The position numbers and the translations under genes are program-made. From Candidatus Nomurabacteria bacterium (GTDB taxonomy: Bacteria > Patescibacteriota > Minisyncoccia > Phycocordibacterales > UBA9973), in assembly GCA_023267275.1 (NCBI GenBank), contig JAHFNO010000005.1:9462-73461 (forward strand): a DNA stretch of 64,000 nucleotides, read 5' to 3'. The notes below the pieces were generated by a model. The model was not told the origin of the DNA, did no database searches, and worked only from the letters and a program-made list of their open reading frames with translations. Of this stretch, positions 2,083-61,279 are shown one piece after another; within the stretch, counting starts at the first letter, position 1, and the number at the start of each line of letters is the position of its first letter.

Positions 2083-2583
2083 ATGTCAATAGACGAAAAT
2101 GTTATTGTTTTGCAAGGAGATTTTAACGCTCCTATGGTTAAGTTCTTTAAAGAAGCACTGCGAAGGCAACCCAAAAATGAGAGTATTGTATGCAGAATCG
2201 ATTCTCTTGGTGGTAATGGTCATTCGATGAATTTCATGAGTGGTCACATGGCAGTTATGACAAAATATCATAAAAGCCGTTTTATATCACAAATTGTTGT
2301 AGCCGAATCAGCAGCACTGATTTTTGCAGTCAATATGCATGAACGACATGTTACAAAATCAAGTGTTGGCTCCATACATTTGCCTGTGAGAAACATGAAT
2401 GTGATTGTAGGCGCACACGAGCCTAACCTCGAGATAAAAAACAAAAGTGTGATTGATCATTTTGTATCAAGAACGAAGCTTACCGCGAAGGAAGTAATTT
2501 CCCTTGAGGGAAAGTTTTTGTCTGCTGAAGAAATGCTTTATTATGGAATTGCAACTAAATTAGTTGAAAGTTTCCAAATCTAA
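2083..2583 (+). CDS. ClpP-like (S14 family) serine peptidase homolog, short and divergent
   Basis: IDSLGGN (ClpP INSPGG-like), Ser in VAESAALIF, His in SIHLPV, C-terminal LSAEEMLYYGIATKLVE like the ClpP tail. Only 166 aa. Confidence 0.55.
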   Translation: MSIDENVIVLQGDFNAPMVKFFKEALRRQPKNESIVCRIDSLGGNGHSMNFMSGHMAVMTKYHKSRFISQIVVAESAALIFAVNMHERHVTKSSVGSIHLPVRNMNVIVGAHEPNLEIKNKSVIDHFVSRTKLTAKEVISLEGKFLSAEEMLYYGIATKLVESFQI

Positions 2584-2655
2584 TTAACTCACCGTTTGCG
2601 CTATAAGCGTACGCGGTGTTTATTTTTTTATACACAATACGCTATACTCACCATA

Positions 2656-3495
2656 ATGATTAATATTCCCATTCTCTACGAAGACGACAATTGTCTTTTT
2701 ATAAATAAGCCGGCGGGGCTTTCTGTGCATGCAGATGGAAAGTCGGATCAATATACTCTTGCCGACTGGATTTTGGAAAAATACCCAACGCTTCTTGCGG
2801 TGGGTGAGCCAATTAAAATGCAGGTACGTGGAGAAGAAATCAGTATTCCAAAACCAGGCATTGTGCATCGTCTCGACAAAGATACTTCCGGCGTCATGCT
2901 TCTTGCAAAAACACATGAGGCGTACGAATTTTTTAAAAAACAATTTCAAGCTCACGAGATTGCAAAAATATACCACTGTTTCGTGTATGGATGGATCAAG
3001 GAAGACCAACAAACAATAGATAGTCCAATCGGACGCGATGCGGGAAATATTCGTCGTTGGGTCGTGGGCAATCTCGCGCGCGGAATGATGCGTGATGCAG
3101 TGACGCACATTCAGGTGCTCAAACGGTTTGGCGCTCCGATGCAGGGGAGCAAGCGAGTTGTTGTAGCCGAGGCTCCTATCGGCGGGAGTACTGAAAAAGG
3201 TACATATTCTTTTGTAGAAGCTCGTCCTCGAACTGGTCGTACACACCAGATTCGTGTGCATTTGCGTTCGATAAACCACCCAATCGTAAGTGACTCACTC
3301 TATGCTCAAAAGCGCGAACCAGCCCTCGGATTTACTCGCCAAGCGCTCCATGCGCGAGAGCTTCGCCTCGCATTACCAAACGGCGAAACAAAGACAGTCG
3401 TTGCTCCATACCCTGAAGATTTCAAAAGAGCACTAGAACAAGAGAACATTGGATCACTAGAACATAAAAACAATAAACAAGAAAACAAAGGATAA
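2656..3495 (+). CDS. RluA-family pseudouridine synthase
   Basis: HRLDKDTSGVMLLAKT catalytic motif; family-typical PAGL.VH and ARP.TGRTHQIRVH segments. Internal Met at MINIPILYEDD taken as start; the listed ORF begins at 2596. Confidence 0.85.
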   Translation: MINIPILYEDDNCLFINKPAGLSVHADGKSDQYTLADWILEKYPTLLAVGEPIKMQVRGEEISIPKPGIVHRLDKDTSGVMLLAKTHEAYEFFKKQFQAHEIAKIYHCFVYGWIKEDQQTIDSPIGRDAGNIRRWVVGNLARGMMRDAVTHIQVLKRFGAPMQGSKRVVVAEAPIGGSTEKGTYSFVEARPRTGRTHQIRVHLRSINHPIVSDSLYAQKREPALGFTRQALHARELRLALPNGETKTVVAPYPEDFKRALEQENIGSLEHKNNKQENKG

Positions 3496-25064: not shown

Positions 25065-25240
25065 AAAAAAATAGTTTGTGATTGGGGAAGTGAGGTTTGA
25101 ATCCTCCACAGTGCCGCTACGGTGATACCAAGACTCTCTTGGGAAGTCCGAATGCCAATCATAAATAGTGTGTCCCGAGCAGGAAATGTAGCGCGTGTTA
25201 AGCGCTCGTCTCTACAAAGTCCCTCGGAAGGGATTTTTTT
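25065..25240 (+). ncRNA. Cobalamin riboswitch with intrinsic-terminator expression platform
   Basis: tGGGGAAGTGAGGTTTGAATCCTCC...ACGGTGATAC...GGGAAGTCCGAATGCCAATC parallels the T. tengcongensis AdoCbl aptamer (GUGGGAAAGUGACGUGAAAUUCGUCC...ACGGUUAUACUCCGAAUGCCACC). Ends in the tccct-cgga-aggga hairpin plus T7 at 25220-25240, ~80 bp upstream of the DUF4430 gene. Confidence 0.75.
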
Positions 25241-54611: not shown

Positions 54612-55193
54612 ATGTTTGATAAACATCAACGTATTCGTATAGGGCAGGAGATTATGCGTGACCATTTTGTGCAGATTGGTGACACCACCGAGATTTTTCT
54701 CGGTGCACTAAAAGGCTTTCGACGCGACCTCGCTCTTTCTTCAAAGGCAACATTCGGAAATATTCGCGGAGAATTTATTGAAACCGCCACGATTATTGCT
54801 GTGCCTCCGCTCTCCGACGGAATGAGTCTTTCCAACTTGAGTGCAATGCTCACACTCTGCACGCAGGCTTTTTTTGGGACAATCGCCATCGATATTCCGG
54901 AGACAATGACAGAAGAGGAAAAGAACTATTTTTTGGAAGAGCTTGATGTCACACATACAAATCTTATGGCTGTATCTGAAACTGCAACACAGTTGTATCA
55001 ATCTATAAAAGAAACTGGTTTTGATTTTGATGTATTCAACACTGAAAATATTGAAAACGAACACACGGAATGCAATATTTTGTTCAATCGTGACGCCCTC
55101 AATCTCGCAATGGAAACCGCGCGAGCGCTTGCCGAACGTGCGGTACGACTCGATATTGATTTAATGGAAAGCCGTGAATCACTAGAACAATAG
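54612..55193 (+). CDS. Hypothetical protein; stop codon lies inside the 8-bp tandem array
   Basis: 193-aa ORF with no recognised domain. Ends ...SLEQ with its TAG at 55191-55193 inside the repeat. Confidence 0.5.
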   Translation: MFDKHQRIRIGQEIMRDHFVQIGDTTEIFLGALKGFRRDLALSSKATFGNIRGEFIETATIIAVPPLSDGMSLSNLSAMLTLCTQAFFGTIAIDIPETMTEEEKNYFLEELDVTHTNLMAVSETATQLYQSIKETGFDFDVFNTENIENEHTECNILFNRDALNLAMETARALAERAVRLDIDLMESRESLEQ

Positions 55194-55322
55194 AACACTA
55201 GAACAATAGAACAATAGAACAATAGAACAATAGAACAATAGAACAATAGAACAATAGAACACTAGAACAATAGAACAATAGAACACTAGAACACTAGAAC
55301 AATAGAACACTAGAACAATAAA
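55181..55322. repeat. Tandem array of about 17 copies of the 8-bp unit (A/C)(A/C)TAGAAC
   Basis: actagaac aatagaac actagaac aatagaac x7 ... read directly from 55181 to ~55322. Lies between the hypothetical gene and the YdeN-like gene. Confidence 0.9.
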
Positions 55323-55334
55323 ACAAAAAAACAT

Positions 55335-55944: not shown

Positions 55945-56523
55945 ATGCATCACATTCATCACAGCGAAGCTTTTGTGCTTGGTTCTCGACCGAAAGGGGA
56001 GGATTCAAAAATACTTATTCTCTATACTCGTGAACTCGGGCTCATTTATGCGCATGCGCAAGGTATCCGAAAAATTTCTTCGAAGCTCCGTTTTGTATTG
56101 CAAGATTTTGCTCGCGTGCAAGTAGATCTGGTTCGCGGAAAAGAAATTTGGCGTCTCACGACGGCGTCGCCGATTGCCTCACACAAAGAAATTTCTCGTT
56201 CACCCAAAGCTGAGCGCATCGTTGCACATATCGCTTCGCTTCTTATTCGACTAGTCACAGGGGAGGAAGCCAACGAAGAAGTTTTTCGCGCAATCACTCG
56301 TGCGTATGATTTACTTGCCTCGTCAAATGACACGACAGATTATCGTGTCATCGAATTGCTTTCCGTAGCACGCATTCTTGTGGCGCTCGGCTATATTTCC
56401 CGTGATGTGCTTGGTGTTGAAGAGGAAGGTACTCACGAGGCACCAAAAGCATTTGCAGATATTGCGTACCAACATCGCCTTATTCGTGATATCAATCAGG
56501 CACTCTCGGCGAGTCAATTGTAG
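55945..56523 (+). CDS. recO: DNA repair protein RecO
   Basis: EAFVLGSRPKGEDSKILILYTRELGLIYAHAQGIRK.SSKLR matches the RecO N-terminal OB-fold signature. Confidence 0.7.
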   Translation: MHHIHHSEAFVLGSRPKGEDSKILILYTRELGLIYAHAQGIRKISSKLRFVLQDFARVQVDLVRGKEIWRLTTASPIASHKEISRSPKAERIVAHIASLLIRLVTGEEANEEVFRAITRAYDLLASSNDTTDYRVIELLSVARILVALGYISRDVLGVEEEGTHEAPKAFADIAYQHRLIRDINQALSASQL

Positions 56524-56605
56524 TTGAAGGTTTATAAAGTCCATAAAGTTTGTAAAGTGAACTCAAATCCAAATAAAGCCTTAACTTGTAAGGGTTTATT
56601 GAGCT

Positions 56606-56640
56606 ATTGACAAAATAGGCATATTGGTGATATAATATAA
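56606..56640 (+). promoter_or_regulatory. Strong sigma70-like promoter upstream of the DGR target gene
   Basis: TTGACA-N18-TATAAT (ttgacaaaataggcatattggtgatataat). Followed by nested inverted repeats gttagaaaaatca...tgatttttctaac. Confidence 0.5.
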
Positions 56641-56778
56641 AAAAAGTAAAAGACTTTGAAAAAAGTTAGAAAAATCAAAGGATTTGATTTTAAAAATTGA
56701 ATTTTTTGATTTTTCTAACCAATAAAACAAGTCCCCGTAAAATAGCTTAAATCATAGCGACGATAGCGAGGCAAAAAC

Positions 56779-57450
56779 ATGAAGCCAACAACACTAGGCC
56801 AAATCGGACAGTTGCTTATGATGATAAGCAACCTATTTGTAACAATGCTTACCGAAAAGAGCAAGAAAATTTCGGAAATTGATGGTGATAAAATTCAGTC
56901 TGCCATTGATATTTCTGATAAAGAAAATTTTCTTTCTGAGTTTATCAAATGGATCAATAATGAATGCAAACTAACCTATCAACTGGTCAACGGCTTCGTG
57001 TTTGGAAATGTATTCAAACATCGCGCTGAAACAGGCGACAAAAGGTTGTACTTCGGTGACAATTACAGAGACTGGTGCGTGATACCAAATCTGAAAAAAT
57101 TTATTTCTATCCGTGAACTTGGTAAACCGAACGAATACAGGTTGCCAAAGAACATGAAGGATAGCGAAATTCAAACAGTCACTGGTAATCCGGGCAATAT
57201 GGATTTTGAAGCATATTCTATTTTGAAATACATACTTATCTTTCAGCCTGAACTCGCCGAGCAATTCTTGGGCGGATATAAGTTGAGCAAAAAAGAATGG
57301 TATGTCATGCACGTAGAACTTCCGGATGGCCGTTTGGTCTCCGTGGACCTGGGCTGGGTTGGCGACGCGTGGGGCTTCGATGCGTTCTCGCTTGGCGGCC
57401 ACACGTGGTTTGAGGGCTACTTGTTCCTCTCTTTCGCTACTAGAAAGTAG
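56779..57450 (+). CDS. DGR target (variable) protein; VR encodes its C-terminal ~32 residues
   Basis: C-terminal DNA 57345-57441 is the adenine-mismatch partner of the TR at 57744-57850. Protein otherwise hypothetical. Confidence 0.7.
   Translation: MKPTTLGQIGQLLMMISNLFVTMLTEKSKKISEIDGDKIQSAIDISDKENFLSEFIKWINNECKLTYQLVNGFVFGNVFKHRAETGDKRLYFGDNYRDWCVIPNLKKFISIRELGKPNEYRLPKNMKDSEIQTVTGNPGNMDFEAYSILKYILIFQPELAEQFLGGYKLSKKEWYVMHVELPDGRLVSVDLGWVGDAWGFDAFSLGGHTWFEGYLFLSFATRK
57345..57441 (+). repeat. DGR variable region (VR)
   Basis: About 105-nt alignment to the TR with 19 mismatches, every one at a TR adenine (AAC->GGC, AAT->GTT/TTT, GAG->GCG, TAC->TTC, GAA->GCT and others). Identical 3' block ttgttcctctctttcg. 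Followed by the hairpin gctact-agaa-agtagc overlapping the stop codon. Confidence 0.85.
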
Positions 57451-57743
57451 CTTTGTTACTGTGTTAAATTATAGAACCTTTGATTCTTTGAATCTTAGGT
57501 TCTTTTTATATATACTCAAGCACGATACTACAAGATTTCTCGGAATCAAATCTTAGAAACGAGTATCAAGGATTTGTATAGTTTAGAATTGTGCTGGAAT
57601 ATTCTTGCATAAGTGCAACATGCAAATTCTCATACATATATTATTCATTAGGTGCGATACTCTCGCGTATTTTATATACGGTATACATATACAGGAATGA
57701 TGTAGTTCATCATCTGGTGGTACAGATGGGGTATCGCACAAGA

Positions 57744-57850
57744 GTGGTCTCCGTGAACCTGAACTGGAATGACGACGAGTGGAACTTCAATGCGTACTCG
57801 CTTGACGACAACACGTGGAATGAGGGCAACTTGTTCCTCTCTTTCGAAAC
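57744..57850 (+). repeat. DGR template repeat (TR)
   Basis: A-rich and AAC-codon-rich cognate of the VR. The ORF-track entry 57591-57872 merely spans it. Immediately followed by a strong hairpin terminator. Confidence 0.85.
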
Positions 57851-57867
57851 TGGAGATATTTTCAAAG

Positions 57868-57905
57868 CATGACCCGCGTTAGCGGGTCATGCTTTGTTTT
57901 TGCCT
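57868..57905. terminator. Bidirectional hairpin terminator after the TR
   Basis: gcatgacccgc-gtta-gcgggtcatgc followed by tttgttttt. Confidence 0.6.
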
Positions 57906-58280
57906 GTCAATTTTTTCATTCGTCTTATTTTTCCAACCACCAAGAATTCTACCCACTTCTTGAATTTTTTCGGATAGTTCGGCGTATGGTTTATCTTTGA
58001 TAAGCTTGTTTTCCCATGCGATTTGGAGAAAGTATTTCAGTAAATCATTTTTGTTTATTGCAGTCACAATGAGAGGACTTTTGTTTTCGAGAGTGGCATA
58101 ATATGCTTGATAGATGACTTCAAGCAAATCTAAAAAATGCGTTTCAATTCTCGCTCCGGTTGTGTATCGGGAAGTCCTTGGCATATGAGGAACGACAGTA
58201 TTCGTCCACAATGCGAATGCTTCCTTGGCTCTCATGACTACACTTGCATTATCGAGAGAGAGAGAGTAAGGTTGCATCAT
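57879..58280 (-). CDS. avd: Avd-like four-helix-bundle protein (23S rRNA IVS-protein family), DGR accessory variability determinant
   Basis: ARIETHFLDLLEVIYQAYYA...LLKYFLQIAWENKLI...YAELSEKIQEVGRILGGW matches the four-helix-bundle IVS/Avd family. Divergent from and abutting the RT gene. Confidence 0.65.
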   Translation of the reverse strand: MMQPYSLSLDNASVVMRAKEAFALWTNTVVPHMPRTSRYTTGARIETHFLDLLEVIYQAYYATLENKSPLIVTAINKNDLLKYFLQIAWENKLIKDKPYAELSEKIQEVGRILGGWKNKTNEKIDRQKQSMTR

Positions 58281-59309
58281 AATTTTGCCAGTATAACATC
58301 TCTTGAAAATATTTTGATTTCATGGAGAGAGTTTTTGTGTGGAAAAAAGAAACGTAAAGATGTGGGTATATTTGCGATGCGACTATCTGATAATCTTATA
58401 TCACTTTCGTTTGAGTTAAAAAATAAAACATATGTTCATCAAGGATATGTCGCATTTAGGATTAATGATCCCAAACCACGGGACATTCATAAGGCGAGTG
58501 TGCGTGATAGGCTTGTACACCATGCGATACATAGAATTTCATACCCATATTTTGACCAGAAATTCGATTTCAATTCTTTTTCTTGCAGAAAATGTAAGGG
58601 TACACACAAAGCACTGTATCGTTTTGAAAAATTCAGTAATATCGTCTCAAAAAACGACACTCGCACCTGTTGGGTATTGAAATGCGACATCAGAAAATTC
58701 TTTGCGAATATCGATCACACAATTTTGAAAGAAATTCTGGCAAAGCATATAGAAGACGTAGACATTCTTTGGTTGTTCGGAGTAGTGATTGATAGCTTCA
58801 ATACAAAATGCACCACCCCACCACTCCTCATTCAGCAGAATGACCCTGGGGGTAAAGTACAGGAGGGGAAAACACAAAGAAAAAAAGGATTGCCACTCGG
58901 CAATCTCACTTCGCAACTTCTTGTGAATATCTATATGAACGAATTTGACCAGTATATGAAGCGAGAATTGAAAGTGAAACATTACATCCGCTATGCTGAT
59001 GATTTTGTAATATTAAGTGAGGATAAAACATATTTAGAAAATTTACTACCACAAATTGCAGAATTTTTGGGAACAAAACTTAAACTCTCACTTCATCCTG
59101 ACAAAGTGTTTATCAAAACACTCGCATCCGGTGTAGATTTTCTCGGTTGGGTACATTTTCCGAATCATCGAGTTCTCCGTACTGCGACCAAACGGAGAAT
59201 GGTGAAGAATATACGGAAAAATACAAAACCAGAAACGCTTGCTTCATACAAGGGAATGCTGAGTCATGGGAATGGGTATAAACTCACGCAACAGATTGAA
59301 AGAATTTAA
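58137..59309 (+). CDS. DGR reverse transcriptase; 5' boundary uncertain
   Basis: RT motifs: LPLGNLTSQLLVNIY ([ILV]GxxxSQ, a DGR-RT signature), YADDFVIL (YxDD); N-terminal ITSLENILISWREFLCGKKKRKDV resembles the bRT N-terminus. The listed ORF start overlaps avd. True start probably an alternative TTG near 58272 or ATG at 58185. Confidence 0.85.
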   Translation: MRFNSRSGCVSGSPWHMRNDSIRPQCECFLGSHDYTCIIERERVRLHHNFASITSLENILISWREFLCGKKKRKDVGIFAMRLSDNLISLSFELKNKTYVHQGYVAFRINDPKPRDIHKASVRDRLVHHAIHRISYPYFDQKFDFNSFSCRKCKGTHKALYRFEKFSNIVSKNDTRTCWVLKCDIRKFFANIDHTILKEILAKHIEDVDILWLFGVVIDSFNTKCTTPPLLIQQNDPGGKVQEGKTQRKKGLPLGNLTSQLLVNIYMNEFDQYMKRELKVKHYIRYADDFVILSEDKTYLENLLPQIAEFLGTKLKLSLHPDKVFIKTLASGVDFLGWVHFPNHRVLRTATKRRMVKNIRKNTKPETLASYKGMLSHGNGYKLTQQIERI

Positions 59310-59350
59310 TTTTGTTCATTGATTTTATGTTCTCGTGATATTATGACTAT

Positions 59351-61279
59351 ATGGGAGATGAGCAAAACGAATGGAATGCCGTGCATAATTTAGATGAAGT
59401 AAACGACCGATTGTATCGGCGTGATTTGGCTGGGCGAGTGGTACCACGAGCCGATGTGTTACATCAAAAACCAGAGCCTACGCCACGTGATTGGAACGAA
59501 GATACTATGAAAAAAAGTAAATTAGGAAATATAAAAATACACCACTCATTCTTCCGCAAATTCTTTTTTGTTTCGCTCGGATTTGCCGGAGTTGCGATTT
59601 TGTTTGCTGTCATCATGTTTTTTACCGGAGGCAATACTGTTTCGAATGCAAACATTGATATCAATGTTTTGGGTAATTCATTTACCGCTGGGGGAGAGGA
59701 ACTTCCACTGCAGGTAGAAGTAGTAAACAAAAATGCGAGCGCGCTCGAACTCTCAGATCTTTTTGTGGAATACGACAAGGGTGGCGATGCAACAAGTGGA
59801 GCAAGTCATGTGCGTGATTTGAATTCACTGGGTACTATCGATGCGGGAAAAACCGCAACCAAAAGTTTTTTTGTGACACTCTATGGTGAACAAGGAAGTA
59901 CAAAAAATGTTGATTTCACTTTGCAATATCGTTTGCATGGATCAAATGCAATTTTCGTAAAGAAGACGAGCTTTGTGGTGACGATAAATTCTGCACCTGT
60001 ATCACTTTCAGTAGATGGCCCAAAAACAATCACACCAAATCAAATGCTCACTTTTACAGTGAAGACGGTTTCAAATAGTAAGAATACACTTTCTGGAATG
60101 TTGCTTCATGTCGACTATCCAACTGGATTCAATTTTCAAAAAGCAGTGCCTGACGCAAACGCATTCAACAATGTGTGGAATCTCGGCGACCTTGCTCCTG
60201 GTGCTGAACGCGATATTGTTATTACTGGTACGGTATACGGACAAGATGGGGAAGATCGTGCATTTCATGTTTACACTGGCGCAGTAAGTGCTGACGATGC
60301 GACAAAGATTGGCGTTACATACAATTCATTGTTGCAAACCGTTTCTCTCGTGAAGCCATTTCTTGCTACACATTTGTCGATCAATGGATCAACAATCGAC
60401 CCAACTCCTGTGGGAAGTGGTAGTAACATAACTGTGGCTGTGACATATGCAAACAATTTGCCGACTCGTGTGACCGATGCATCTATCACTGTGCAGCTTT
60501 CTGGAAATGCATTGAATGCAGATAGTATTACGGTGCCAAAAGGATTTTATGATTCTGCAAAAAATACTATAACGTGGAATAAAACAACCGATGCTGATTT
60601 GGCCTCGATTGAACCTTCGGATCAAGGTGTGCTCAATTTTACATTAAGGACATTGCCACTCTGGTCTGCAGGATCAACACTTTCAAAACCAACAATAAAA
60701 CTCTCAGCAAGTATTACTGGTAAACAACCAGATCAAGGAGGCACAACAAATACCGTGACTGATTTTGAGGAAAAGACAGCGATTGTCGATTCTGATCTTG
60801 GATTTACTGGCGGTGCTTCATATGCGGCTGGACCATTTTCAAACACTGGACCGATTCCTCCAAAAGCAAACCAACCAACAACATACACAATCACCTGGAC
60901 GGTAACCAATTCTGCAAATGCGCTTGCCGACGGTCTTGCAACGGCAACATTGCCTACATATGTGGATTGGGTAGGAACAATCAGCCCAGCAAGCGAATCA
61001 CTTCAATATGATGCAACGACGAGCACGATTCGCTGGAATTTTGGACAGGTTCCAGCAGGAGCGGGAATTTCTGGTGCTTCACGAAGTGTTTCTTTCCAGG
61101 TACGTCTCAATCCATCTACATCTCAAGCGGGAAGTGTTCCAAAACTTGTGCTTGATACGACGGTTTCTGCTCGTGATACCTTTACTGGCACAATATTGAA
61201 TCTCACACGTGGGGCAATCTCAACTCAGTTGCAGAATGATCCTGGTTTTCCAGCCAATGGACAGACTGTGACTAAGTGA
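59351..61279 (+). CDS. Large membrane-anchored beta-rich surface protein, hypothetical
   Basis: Single N-proximal TM helix, then ~560 aa of Thr/Ser/Asn/Gly-rich beta-repeat-like sequence. No VR-like match to the TR. Confidence 0.55.
   Translation: MGDEQNEWNAVHNLDEVNDRLYRRDLAGRVVPRADVLHQKPEPTPRDWNEDTMKKSKLGNIKIHHSFFRKFFFVSLGFAGVAILFAVIMFFTGGNTVSNANIDINVLGNSFTAGGEELPLQVEVVNKNASALELSDLFVEYDKGGDATSGASHVRDLNSLGTIDAGKTATKSFFVTLYGEQGSTKNVDFTLQYRLHGSNAIFVKKTSFVVTINSAPVSLSVDGPKTITPNQMLTFTVKTVSNSKNTLSGMLLHVDYPTGFNFQKAVPDANAFNNVWNLGDLAPGAERDIVITGTVYGQDGEDRAFHVYTGAVSADDATKIGVTYNSLLQTVSLVKPFLATHLSINGSTIDPTPVGSGSNITVAVTYANNLPTRVTDASITVQLSGNALNADSITVPKGFYDSAKNTITWNKTTDADLASIEPSDQGVLNFTLRTLPLWSAGSTLSKPTIKLSASITGKQPDQGGTTNTVTDFEEKTAIVDSDLGFTGGASYAAGPFSNTGPIPPKANQPTTYTITWTVTNSANALADGLATATLPTYVDWVGTISPASESLQYDATTSTIRWNFGQVPAGAGISGASRSVSFQVRLNPSTSQAGSVPKLVLDTTVSARDTFTGTILNLTRGAISTQLQNDPGFPANGQTVTK

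Follow-up and report, generated by a model that had tools for sequence, protein, structure and literature searches.

A complete diversity-generating retroelement of the CPR lineage in a Nomurabacteria chromosome and the conserved folded RNA beside its template repeat

Introduction

Several described systems stood close to the diversity-generating retroelement (DGR) that we analysed at positions 56607-59309 of a 64,000-nucleotide stretch of DNA from a Candidatus Nomurabacteria bacterium (assembly GCA_023267275.1, contig JAHFNO010000005.1, forward strand 9,462 to 73,461; the whole stretch is called the window below). In the candidate phyla radiation (CPR), 90% of the DGRs have the architecture B3, namely a template repeat (TR), an avd gene in reversed orientation and a reverse transcriptase (RT) gene (Wu et al. 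2018, PMC5758913). Another such system is the element of the Bordetella phage BPP-1. In its RNA, the strand just 5' of the TR pairs with positions 59-70 of the spacer (Sp) RNA, and this duplex is needed for cDNA synthesis and marks its stop; the Sp strand then runs into a short stem-loop, A-minor adenosines, a single-stranded "thumb ring" and an RT-binding stem-loop (10.1101/2023.10.23.563531). The BPP-1 RNA also has an Avd-binding stem-loop, and such a stem-loop was predicted 3' of the TR in 207 of 278 DGRs by Handa et al., whose analysis covered only 40 nt upstream of the TR (bioRxiv 10.1101/2023.10.23.563531). A hairpin on the side of the variable repeat (VR) is known from the Bordetella element as well (PMC5758913). 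Moreover, structured RNAs beside bacterial RT genes have been described as the motifs RT-1 to RT-19, of which RT-10 is the BPP-1 Sp RNA (Weinberg et al. 2017, PMC5737381).

We found that the cassette in the window was 2.7 kb long, with its parts in the order target gene (+), TR (+), avd (-) and RT (+), and that it is a CPR/Patescibacteria DGR of architecture B3 (PMC5758913) and of DGR clade 2 (Roux et al. 2021, PMC8144416). It was very probably a complete chromosomal element of this lineage. An earlier note on this DNA, made from the sequence without database searches, had already claimed a complete DGR with target gene and VR, TR, Avd and RT at 56606-59309, and had added that the class was not new, since DGRs are common in CPR-like genomes. 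The completeness was borne out by the pattern of the repeats and by the protein matches of the RT and Avd, the familiarity of the class by its architecture, its clade and its many relatives, and the span by the limits of similarity to two related loci, all given below. The sole new point of this DGR is a conserved folded RNA beside the TR. The main interest of the locus lay in an RNA architecture of the whole clade that a clean instance exposed.

Results

The repeat pair and its adenine-specific mismatches

The repeats were located with an exhaustive ungapped offset scan, which returned a single outstanding alignment at an offset of 410. The following features belonged to the pair:

57335-57441, + strand: VR, the last ~36 codons of the target gene
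57745-57851, + strand: TR, non-coding and intergenic, 410 nt 3' of the VR
57419-57436, + strand: invariant 3' block common to VR and TR, ACTTGTTCCTCTCTTTCG, a boundary of mutagenesis resembling the initiation of mutagenic homing (IMH) site
57436-57451, + strand: VR-specific hairpin GCTACT-AGAA-AGTAGC, which spans the target stop codon and is formed via an AA to CT difference from the TR

The two repeats aligned without gaps over 107 nt with 19 mismatches. All of them (19/19) fell on adenines of the TR and all non-adenine positions (80/80) were identical, an outcome whose probability by chance was ~4e-15 (hypergeometric). Altogether, 19 of the 27 TR adenines were altered in the VR (A to G 10, A to T 6, A to C 3), and, read in the frame of the target, the altered adenines were the first or second base of AAC, AAT, GAC, GAG and TAC codons. 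An adenine-masked TR pattern matched only two copies in the window and none in shuffles; therefore, a single target with one VR was present in the window. The earlier note had reported the 19 mismatches on TR adenines, a set of codon substitutions and the conserved 3' block, and realignment with tabulation by TR base reproduced each of these. It had also placed the VR at 57345-57441 and the TR at 57744-57850; the pairing was right, and the coordinates needed correction, the VR start by 10 nt and the TR by 1 nt; the two lengths given there were also unequal.

The VR and TR were free of mismatches between 57418 and 57437, and the invariant block was kept in relatives. By analogy with phage BPP-1, this block would play the IMH role (PMC5758913). 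The final two mismatches lay just beyond it, at 57437-57438, where the TR read GAAACT and the VR GCTACT. The identical AA to CT difference between VR and TR was found in three related loci (L001, L007 and L008; related loci are denoted by L numbers), and similar fixed differences were seen in others. The TR end (GAAACT) was unable to form the VR hairpin, and small equivalent hairpins stood at the VR end of L001, L002, L008 and L011. Because the AA to CT change recurred in relatives and built a hairpin present in the VR only, we read these two mismatches as a fixed IMH/IMH* difference and not as random mutagenesis. Accordingly, of the 19 mismatches that the earlier note had taken as one A-to-N pattern, 17 were left as mutagenic. 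The VR-only hairpin would be a target-recognition hairpin.

A 93-aa open reading frame (ORF) at 57591-57872 (+) ran across the TR as a mechanical shadow of the target frame; it arose because the TR copies the reading frame of the target. Similar TR-derived ORFs of 83-93 aa were called as proteins by gene callers at L001 (3546-3809) and L011 (1418-1669). Such TR-overlapping ORFs are probably an annotation artefact common to the clade.

Continued homing in related lineages

The window cassette was ~82-84% identical at the DNA level to the cassettes of L001 and L011, which allowed the three repeat pairs to be compared. The TRs of the three loci differed pairwise at 4-8 of 102 positions, and in each locus the VR equalled its own TR at every non-adenine site. 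The VRs differed from one another at 42-64% of the shared TR-adenine sites vs 4-8% of the other sites (Fisher p 4e-4 to 9e-10). Since each VR matched its own TR though the TRs had diverged, the VRs had been re-templated after the lineages split. These alignments indicate that homing and mutagenesis continued after the separation of the window, L001 and L011 lineages. Judging from the same comparison, the DGR was probably active recently, and it may be so in this particular population.

A contig from another sequencing run (L010, SRR14366796) was 100% identical over its positions 1-2727 to window 57414-60140. It started inside the VR, with the last variable site of the VR 4 nt further on, and this start was weakly consistent with an assembly break caused by VR heterogeneity.

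A conserved RNA structure on both sides of the TR

The features of the RNA around the TR were as follows:

57625-57749, + strand: conserved three-helix RNA element of ~125 nt, directly 5' of the TR, supported by covariation
57652-57663 with 57728-57739, + strand: P1, the closing helix of 12 bp, which encloses P2 and P3
57666-57670 with 57676-57680, + strand: helix P2 (RNAalifold, 64 loci)
57694-57702 with 57708-57715, + strand: helix P3 (RNAalifold, 64 loci)
57863-57901, + strand: post-TR hairpin with a perfect 15-bp stem and a GUUA loop (57863-57896), followed by UUUUU, 11 nt after the TR
57474-57516, + strand: hairpin and T-run after the target gene, overlapping the candidate promoter of the TR RNA
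57488-57516, + strand: candidate TR-RNA promoter TTGAAT-17-TATACT, a 9/12 match, not above the regional chance count

The three-helix structure was obtained from an alignment of 64 loci that was anchored on the TR start and folded with RNAalifold. Standard pairs filled 96.2% of the cells, vs 71% in shuffles and 27-53% with slid partners. Double-change cells numbered 344 vs 86 in the control, and compensatory changes were found at 17 of the 19 pairs. The strands joining the helices were conserved too, with the consensus ...CUUGGUG, AAAUAAAAUACAG and GCAGUGGnAnAGAUGG. Since G-U pairs were frequent, the RNA strand was that of the TR. When the window RNA was folded alone, P1, P2 and the 3' hairpin were regained (z -5.6).

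A covariance model, R1, was built from the same alignment. In the window, it had a single match, 57625-57749, with 81 bits. Among 88 related loci (647 kb), there were 78 matches, all on the RT strand and none stray. They came one per locus except in L022, stood just 5' of the TR wherever a TR was mapped, and included 13 loci outside the training set of the model. A search of the whole window with Rfam 15 at gathering scores gave no family for the TR region, and neither did a search of 57300-58400 with E values allowed up to 10; among the families without a match to 57300-58400 were the motifs RT-1 to RT-19, including RT-10/Sp. Likewise, no description of the three-helix element was found in the literature searched.

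In the window, the strand just 5' of the TR was the 3' arm of P1, which ended ~5 nt before the TR (5-10 nt across related loci). Next to the 5' arm of P1 came P2 as a short stem-loop, then an A-rich single strand and then P3, another stem-loop. Pairing of the 40 nt 5' of the TR with the 120 nt 3' of it showed no excess over shuffles in 62 loci (median z 0.12; 6% below -2).

The post-TR hairpin was the top terminator-like site of the region, and the stop codon of avd, on the other strand, lay in its loop. Such a hairpin followed the TR in 64/64 loci examined, with a median of 9 bp and 5 G-C pairs, ~11 nt after the end of the TR/VR homology. The 9 nt past the hairpin contained six or more T in 57/64 loci, and the stems varied in sequence from locus to locus. 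The hairpin looks like an intrinsic terminator; by its position, it would be the counterpart of the Avd-binding stem-loop of BPP-1.

Between the target gene and the three-helix element, the blocks CCTTTGAYTCTTTG and TATATAC recurred 25-45 nt past the VR in many relatives, and the hairpin and promoter region at 57474-57516 was taken to be putatively functional.

Two further pairings of the RNA were considered. Pairing of J3/1 (GGUGG..GAUGG) with the antisense of avd "GGW" codons was set aside after inspection of one locus, L007, whose variant breaks the pairing and does not compensate for it. A primer-template duplex between the U-tract and CGAAAC at the TR end was left as speculation, as many relatives have CGCAAC and cannot pair.

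At L022, a Berkelbacteria locus, two copies of the three-helix element were found (2989-3120, 39 bits; 3283-3416, 49 bits), and the VR-TR distance, 824 nt, was unusually long. This locus may hold a duplicated or degenerate TR unit.

Reverse transcriptase and Avd

The two enzyme-side genes were:

58272-59309, + strand: DGR reverse transcriptase, ~345 aa, RVT_1 83 bits, with bRT as the best PDB match
57879-58280, - strand: avd, accessory variability determinant, 133 aa, between TR and RT and inverted with respect to target, TR and RT

The best solved relative of the RT was the Bordetella DGR enzyme bRT (8ub7, E 3.7e-35), and the best group II intron RT followed at 8e-17. The motifs LGNLTSQ and YADD named in the earlier note were both present: the RT had LPLGNLTSQ where bRT has IPIGSLTSQ, and YADD where bRT has YMDD. 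Equivalents of bRT K29, F66, R74, I76, D138 and D215/216 were kept, and I181 was replaced by Leu. The equivalent of Arg74, by alignment the putative adenine-mutagenesis residue, was thus conserved along with the catalytic residues. The placement of the RT in its clade rested on PDB ranking, motifs and context. In NCBIfam, which holds no matching DGR-RT model, the top rank went to a group II intron RT model (136.7 bits, cut-off 300). Identities of the RT as a group II intron or retron enzyme were rejected, given the E-values of bRT and the group II enzyme and a group II model score below its cut-off.

The frame of the RT was open from an ATG at 58137, and the N-terminus conserved in the family (..H.Y..IIS.ENLL.AW.EF) began at ~58272-58275. 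The start was therefore placed, as a prediction, at TTG 58272, the only plausible start at the conserved N-terminus. In the gene call for the identical contig L010, the RT started at an ATG further downstream, with the loss of ~35 conserved residues.

Avd matched the Pfam family bAvd (PF22296) with 56.9 bits, above the cut-off of 40, and a PDB sequence search gave only chance-level matches (E >= 0.25). The earlier note had been right that an Avd-like ORF followed the TR at 57879-58280 and had missed that it lay on the minus strand. The starts of avd and RT stood head to head and overlapped by ~9 nt on opposite strands.

Target gene and its protein

The target side of the cassette comprised:

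56607-56636, + strand: candidate sigma-70-type promoter of the target gene, TTGACA-18-TATAAT with upstream TG, a 12/12 consensus match
56654-56778, + strand: conserved 5' untranslated region (UTR) of the target gene, with an inverted repeat and ATAGC(GA) repeats
56779-57450, + strand: target gene, 223 aa, whose C-terminal domain (residues ~68-223) bears the VR

A TTGAC(A/T)...TATAAT pair was found at the equivalent place in L001 and L011, which is consistent with a promoter function of 56607-56636. An imperfect inverted repeat of 27 nt (56665-56719) lay in the 5' UTR, and ATAGC(GA) stood there in three direct copies just before a GAGG ribosome-binding site. The 5' UTR was near-identical in L001 (2590-2715) and L011 and was better conserved than the target coding sequence. 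Its last ~50 nt were kept in L002 (~820-876), whose target protein was 53% identical, and the block AAACAAGTCCCCGTAAAATAGCTT..ATAGCGA..ATAGCGAGG was almost unchanged even there. The 5' UTR may act as an operator or in the control of translation.

Sequence searches of Pfam, NCBIfam and the PDB with the target protein gave no match. An exhaustive HMMER search gathered a protein family of 76 clusters at 50% identity, mostly of ~150-240 aa, and six homologues were close. The protein was modelled with AlphaFold2 from an alignment of 33 sequences: residues 1-69 were helical with low confidence, and residues 70-222 were modelled with high confidence. Modelled alone, the C-terminal domain reached a predicted local distance difference test score (pLDDT) of 93.9 and a predicted template modelling score (pTM) of 0.88. 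The top Foldseek matches to this domain were C-type-lectin-like domains (CTLDs), at E of ~0.3. The structures named alongside it were PorK, PvdO, CalU17 and the CTLD of CD72, and also EgtB, SenA and many animal CTLDs. A C-type-lectin or immunoglobulin-like fold had been suggested in the earlier note for the target C-terminus; the model pointed to the former, as a very divergent C-type-lectin-like fold, for which this evidence was weak but consistent. Since the N-terminal helix was not hydrophobic in homologues, the target protein is probably soluble.

Related loci and the limits of the cassette

Relatives of the RT were counted in thousands at 60-77% identity, with annotations as Nomurabacteria, Paceibacterota or further CPR groups. 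When each species was represented by one genome, a scan returned at least 579 loci with a close RT relative. The RTs of the related loci that we compared were 57-77% identical to that of the window, and most of these loci were labelled Patescibacteria/CPR. The avd gene was opposite to the RT, with the same gene order and strands, in 85/85 related loci for which sufficient DNA was available upstream. With few exceptions, the TR of these loci lay beside the avd 3' end and the VR stood 370-590 nt upstream on the RT strand. Over 67 non-redundant related loci, the TR/VR mismatches fell 1152 times on A and 25 times on other bases, a ratio that is overstated since the scoring favoured A.

On the contigs of the close target homologues, the four parts recurred with unchanged orientation among unrelated neighbours. 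The cassette was flanked by genes for an Asp/Glu racemase and a Mur ligase in L001, by rpsG and fusA in L002-L004, and by recO and a DUF11 gene in the window. The similarity to L001 and L011 started at the promoter 56607-56636 (blastn match from ~56654-56659) and ended at the RT stop, 59309. No integrase or terminal repeats were found with the cassette when window 55945-61279 was compared with L001, L002-L004, L005 and L008. Thus, the 2.7-kb unit as a whole moves between chromosomal sites, among unrelated housekeeping genes, with neither an integrase nor terminal repeats.

Two loci departed from this picture. On the contig of L007 (1-11095), with an RT 68-72% identical, the DGR had phage-like or mobile genes around it, which encoded SduA_C, a ParB-methylase, a serine recombinase and the large subunit of a terminase. 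Hence, CPR phages or prophages may carry some members of this "cellular" clade. L020 had an RT (2437-3408) and an inverted avd (2445-2095), and neither a TR/VR pair nor an R1 match was found in it although ~2 kb of DNA was available upstream; this locus may represent an element that has decayed or been rearranged.

Elsewhere in the window, an array at 55183-55326 repeated the 8-nt unit TAGAACAA 18 times in tandem with 93% matches; it was intergenic between two genes of the + strand and ~1.3 kb 5' of the DGR. At 25075-25165 (+), there was a match to the Rfam AdoCbl-II (cobalamin) riboswitch, with 37.0 bits vs a gathering score of 36.5.

Discussion

In the mechanism that we infer, with its putative promoters, transcript ends, priming site and roles for the RNA elements, a non-coding RNA of the + strand would carry the 5' structured element (57625-57749), the TR (57745-57851) and the 3' hairpin with its U-tract (57863-57901). 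The RT, together with Avd, would copy the TR into cDNA with misincorporation opposite template adenines. The cDNA would then replace the VR (57335-57441), guided by the invariant block 57419-57436 and the VR-only hairpin 57436-57451. In this way, ~14 codons would be rewritten in the putative C-type-lectin-like domain at the C-terminus of the 223-aa target. The inventory of parts in the earlier note agreed with this scheme; it lacked the conserved RNA structure flanking the TR, and it can now be refined by an RT start at about TTG 58272 within the frame open from 58137.

Several observations weighed against a complete and working element. The RT had no in-frame ATG or GTG at its conserved N-terminus, the score of Avd against the NCBIfam model NF033474 (DGR Avd) was 62 bits, under the cut-off of 80, promoter-like sites in the region were no commoner than in shuffles, and the overlap of the avd and RT starts left no intergenic space for divergent promoters. 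The non-canonical start codon, the overlapping starts and the low NCBIfam score of Avd, together with the single consensus sequence behind the record, would suit a fossil DGR that was once active and is now inert, its VR frozen. We considered such a fossil very unlikely: all three ORFs were intact, the catalytic and template-contact residues of the RT were conserved, the flanking RNA elements were intact and scored well (81 bits), and no non-adenine mismatch separated VR and TR, while the TRs of the orthologues had diverged at 4-8 of 102 positions and each VR had tracked its own TR. The only point in favour of an ordinary partial gene duplication or chance similarity, next to an RT of group II intron or retron type, was the first rank of the group II intron RT model in NCBIfam, far under its cut-off. 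That explanation had a negligible chance of being right in view of the adenine-only mismatches (P ~4e-15), bRT as the best solved relative, the adjacent Avd and an arrangement recurring in 85 loci; moreover, no group II intron or retron RNA family was found in the window with Rfam. Thus, a complete and probably recently active DGR was the reading that we retained.

The role of the three-helix RNA was less certain. The order of elements in the RNA was like that of BPP-1, where it mirrored Sp 59-139, but here the whole assembly lay 5' of the TR. As a possible, tentative proposal, the DGR RNA of the CPR clade might be a circularly permuted form of its Bordetella counterpart, and the 5' element may then be the counterpart of the stop, thumb-ring and RT-binding elements of BPP-1. 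This scaffold role was drawn from analogy to BPP-1, and a competing explanation held that the three-helix RNA is a cis-regulatory leader of the TR transcript (riboswitch-like, an attenuator or a stability element) and neither an RT-Avd scaffold nor a cDNA stop. A leader would be expected where the element was found, between a candidate promoter and the TR, and the conserved single-stranded joining regions resembled ligand-binding junctions. However, the 3' strand of P1 ended where BPP-1 has its required duplex strand and cDNA stop, and the sequence of duplex strand, short stem-loop, A-rich single strand and stem-loop repeated the order of the Sp RNA. Furthermore, almost every related locus had a single copy of the element (L022 had two), with none elsewhere in 647 kb, and the clade had no upstream-downstream complementarity that could supply a duplex of the BPP-1 type. 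We therefore regarded a purely regulatory leader as unlikely. Should the U-tract be the end of the transcript, priming could not start at an internal spacer adenosine such as Sp A56 in BPP-1; the cDNA would then be primed by another route, for instance at the 3' end of the RNA itself.

The instance itself was one more clean, complete and apparently recently active member of the largest cellular DGR lineage, and nothing was changed conceptually by it. The R1 model, which matched the 78 related loci that kept DNA 5' of their TR, is a practical tool to locate TRs and to annotate CPR DGRs. The RNA at ~57524-57901 is a concrete candidate for the in vitro reconstitution of a CPR DGR and for work on priming with avd in the place of the spacer. 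In addition, the divergent C-type-lectin-like model of a CPR target without recognisable domains would support the expectation of Roux et al. 2021.

Comparison with known systems

With respect to the CPR DGRs of architecture B3 and clade 2, the window cassette was alike in being chromosomal, in its small target without a recognisable domain or membrane anchor, and in its gene order and strands, with a TR/VR spacing here of ~400-500 nt. No substantive difference was observed; the cassette carried one particular target family and occupied its own site between recO and the DUF11 gene. For the putative fold of the target, the comparators were the DGR variable proteins of the C-type-lectin/FGE (formylglycine-generating enzyme) fold, such as Treponema TvpA (PDB 2y3c), with pFGE (1y4j) as the fold reference.

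The prototypical BPP-1 element (mtd-avd-TR-Sp-brt) shared with the window cassette the adenine-specific transfer from TR to VR, the VR at the target C-terminus, the invariant 3' block, the VR-only hairpin, a bRT homologue, an Avd partner and a stem-loop right after the TR. In contrast to BPP-1, an inverted avd stood here in place of the 140-nt Sp RNA, there was no Rfam RT-10/Sp match and no structured 3' spacer of the BPP-1 type, and the post-TR hairpin was followed by a U-tract in a terminator-like manner. Moreover, the large conserved RNA structure lay 5' of the TR and not 3' of it, no signal of an upstream-downstream duplex was present, the host was cellular and not a phage, and the target was not a tail fibre.

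The Rfam motifs RT-1 to RT-19 resembled the present case as structured RNAs near bacterial RT genes, at least one of which is part of a DGR. In contrast to these motifs, the element described here was located 5' of the TR and was parted from the RT gene by the TR and the inverted avd.

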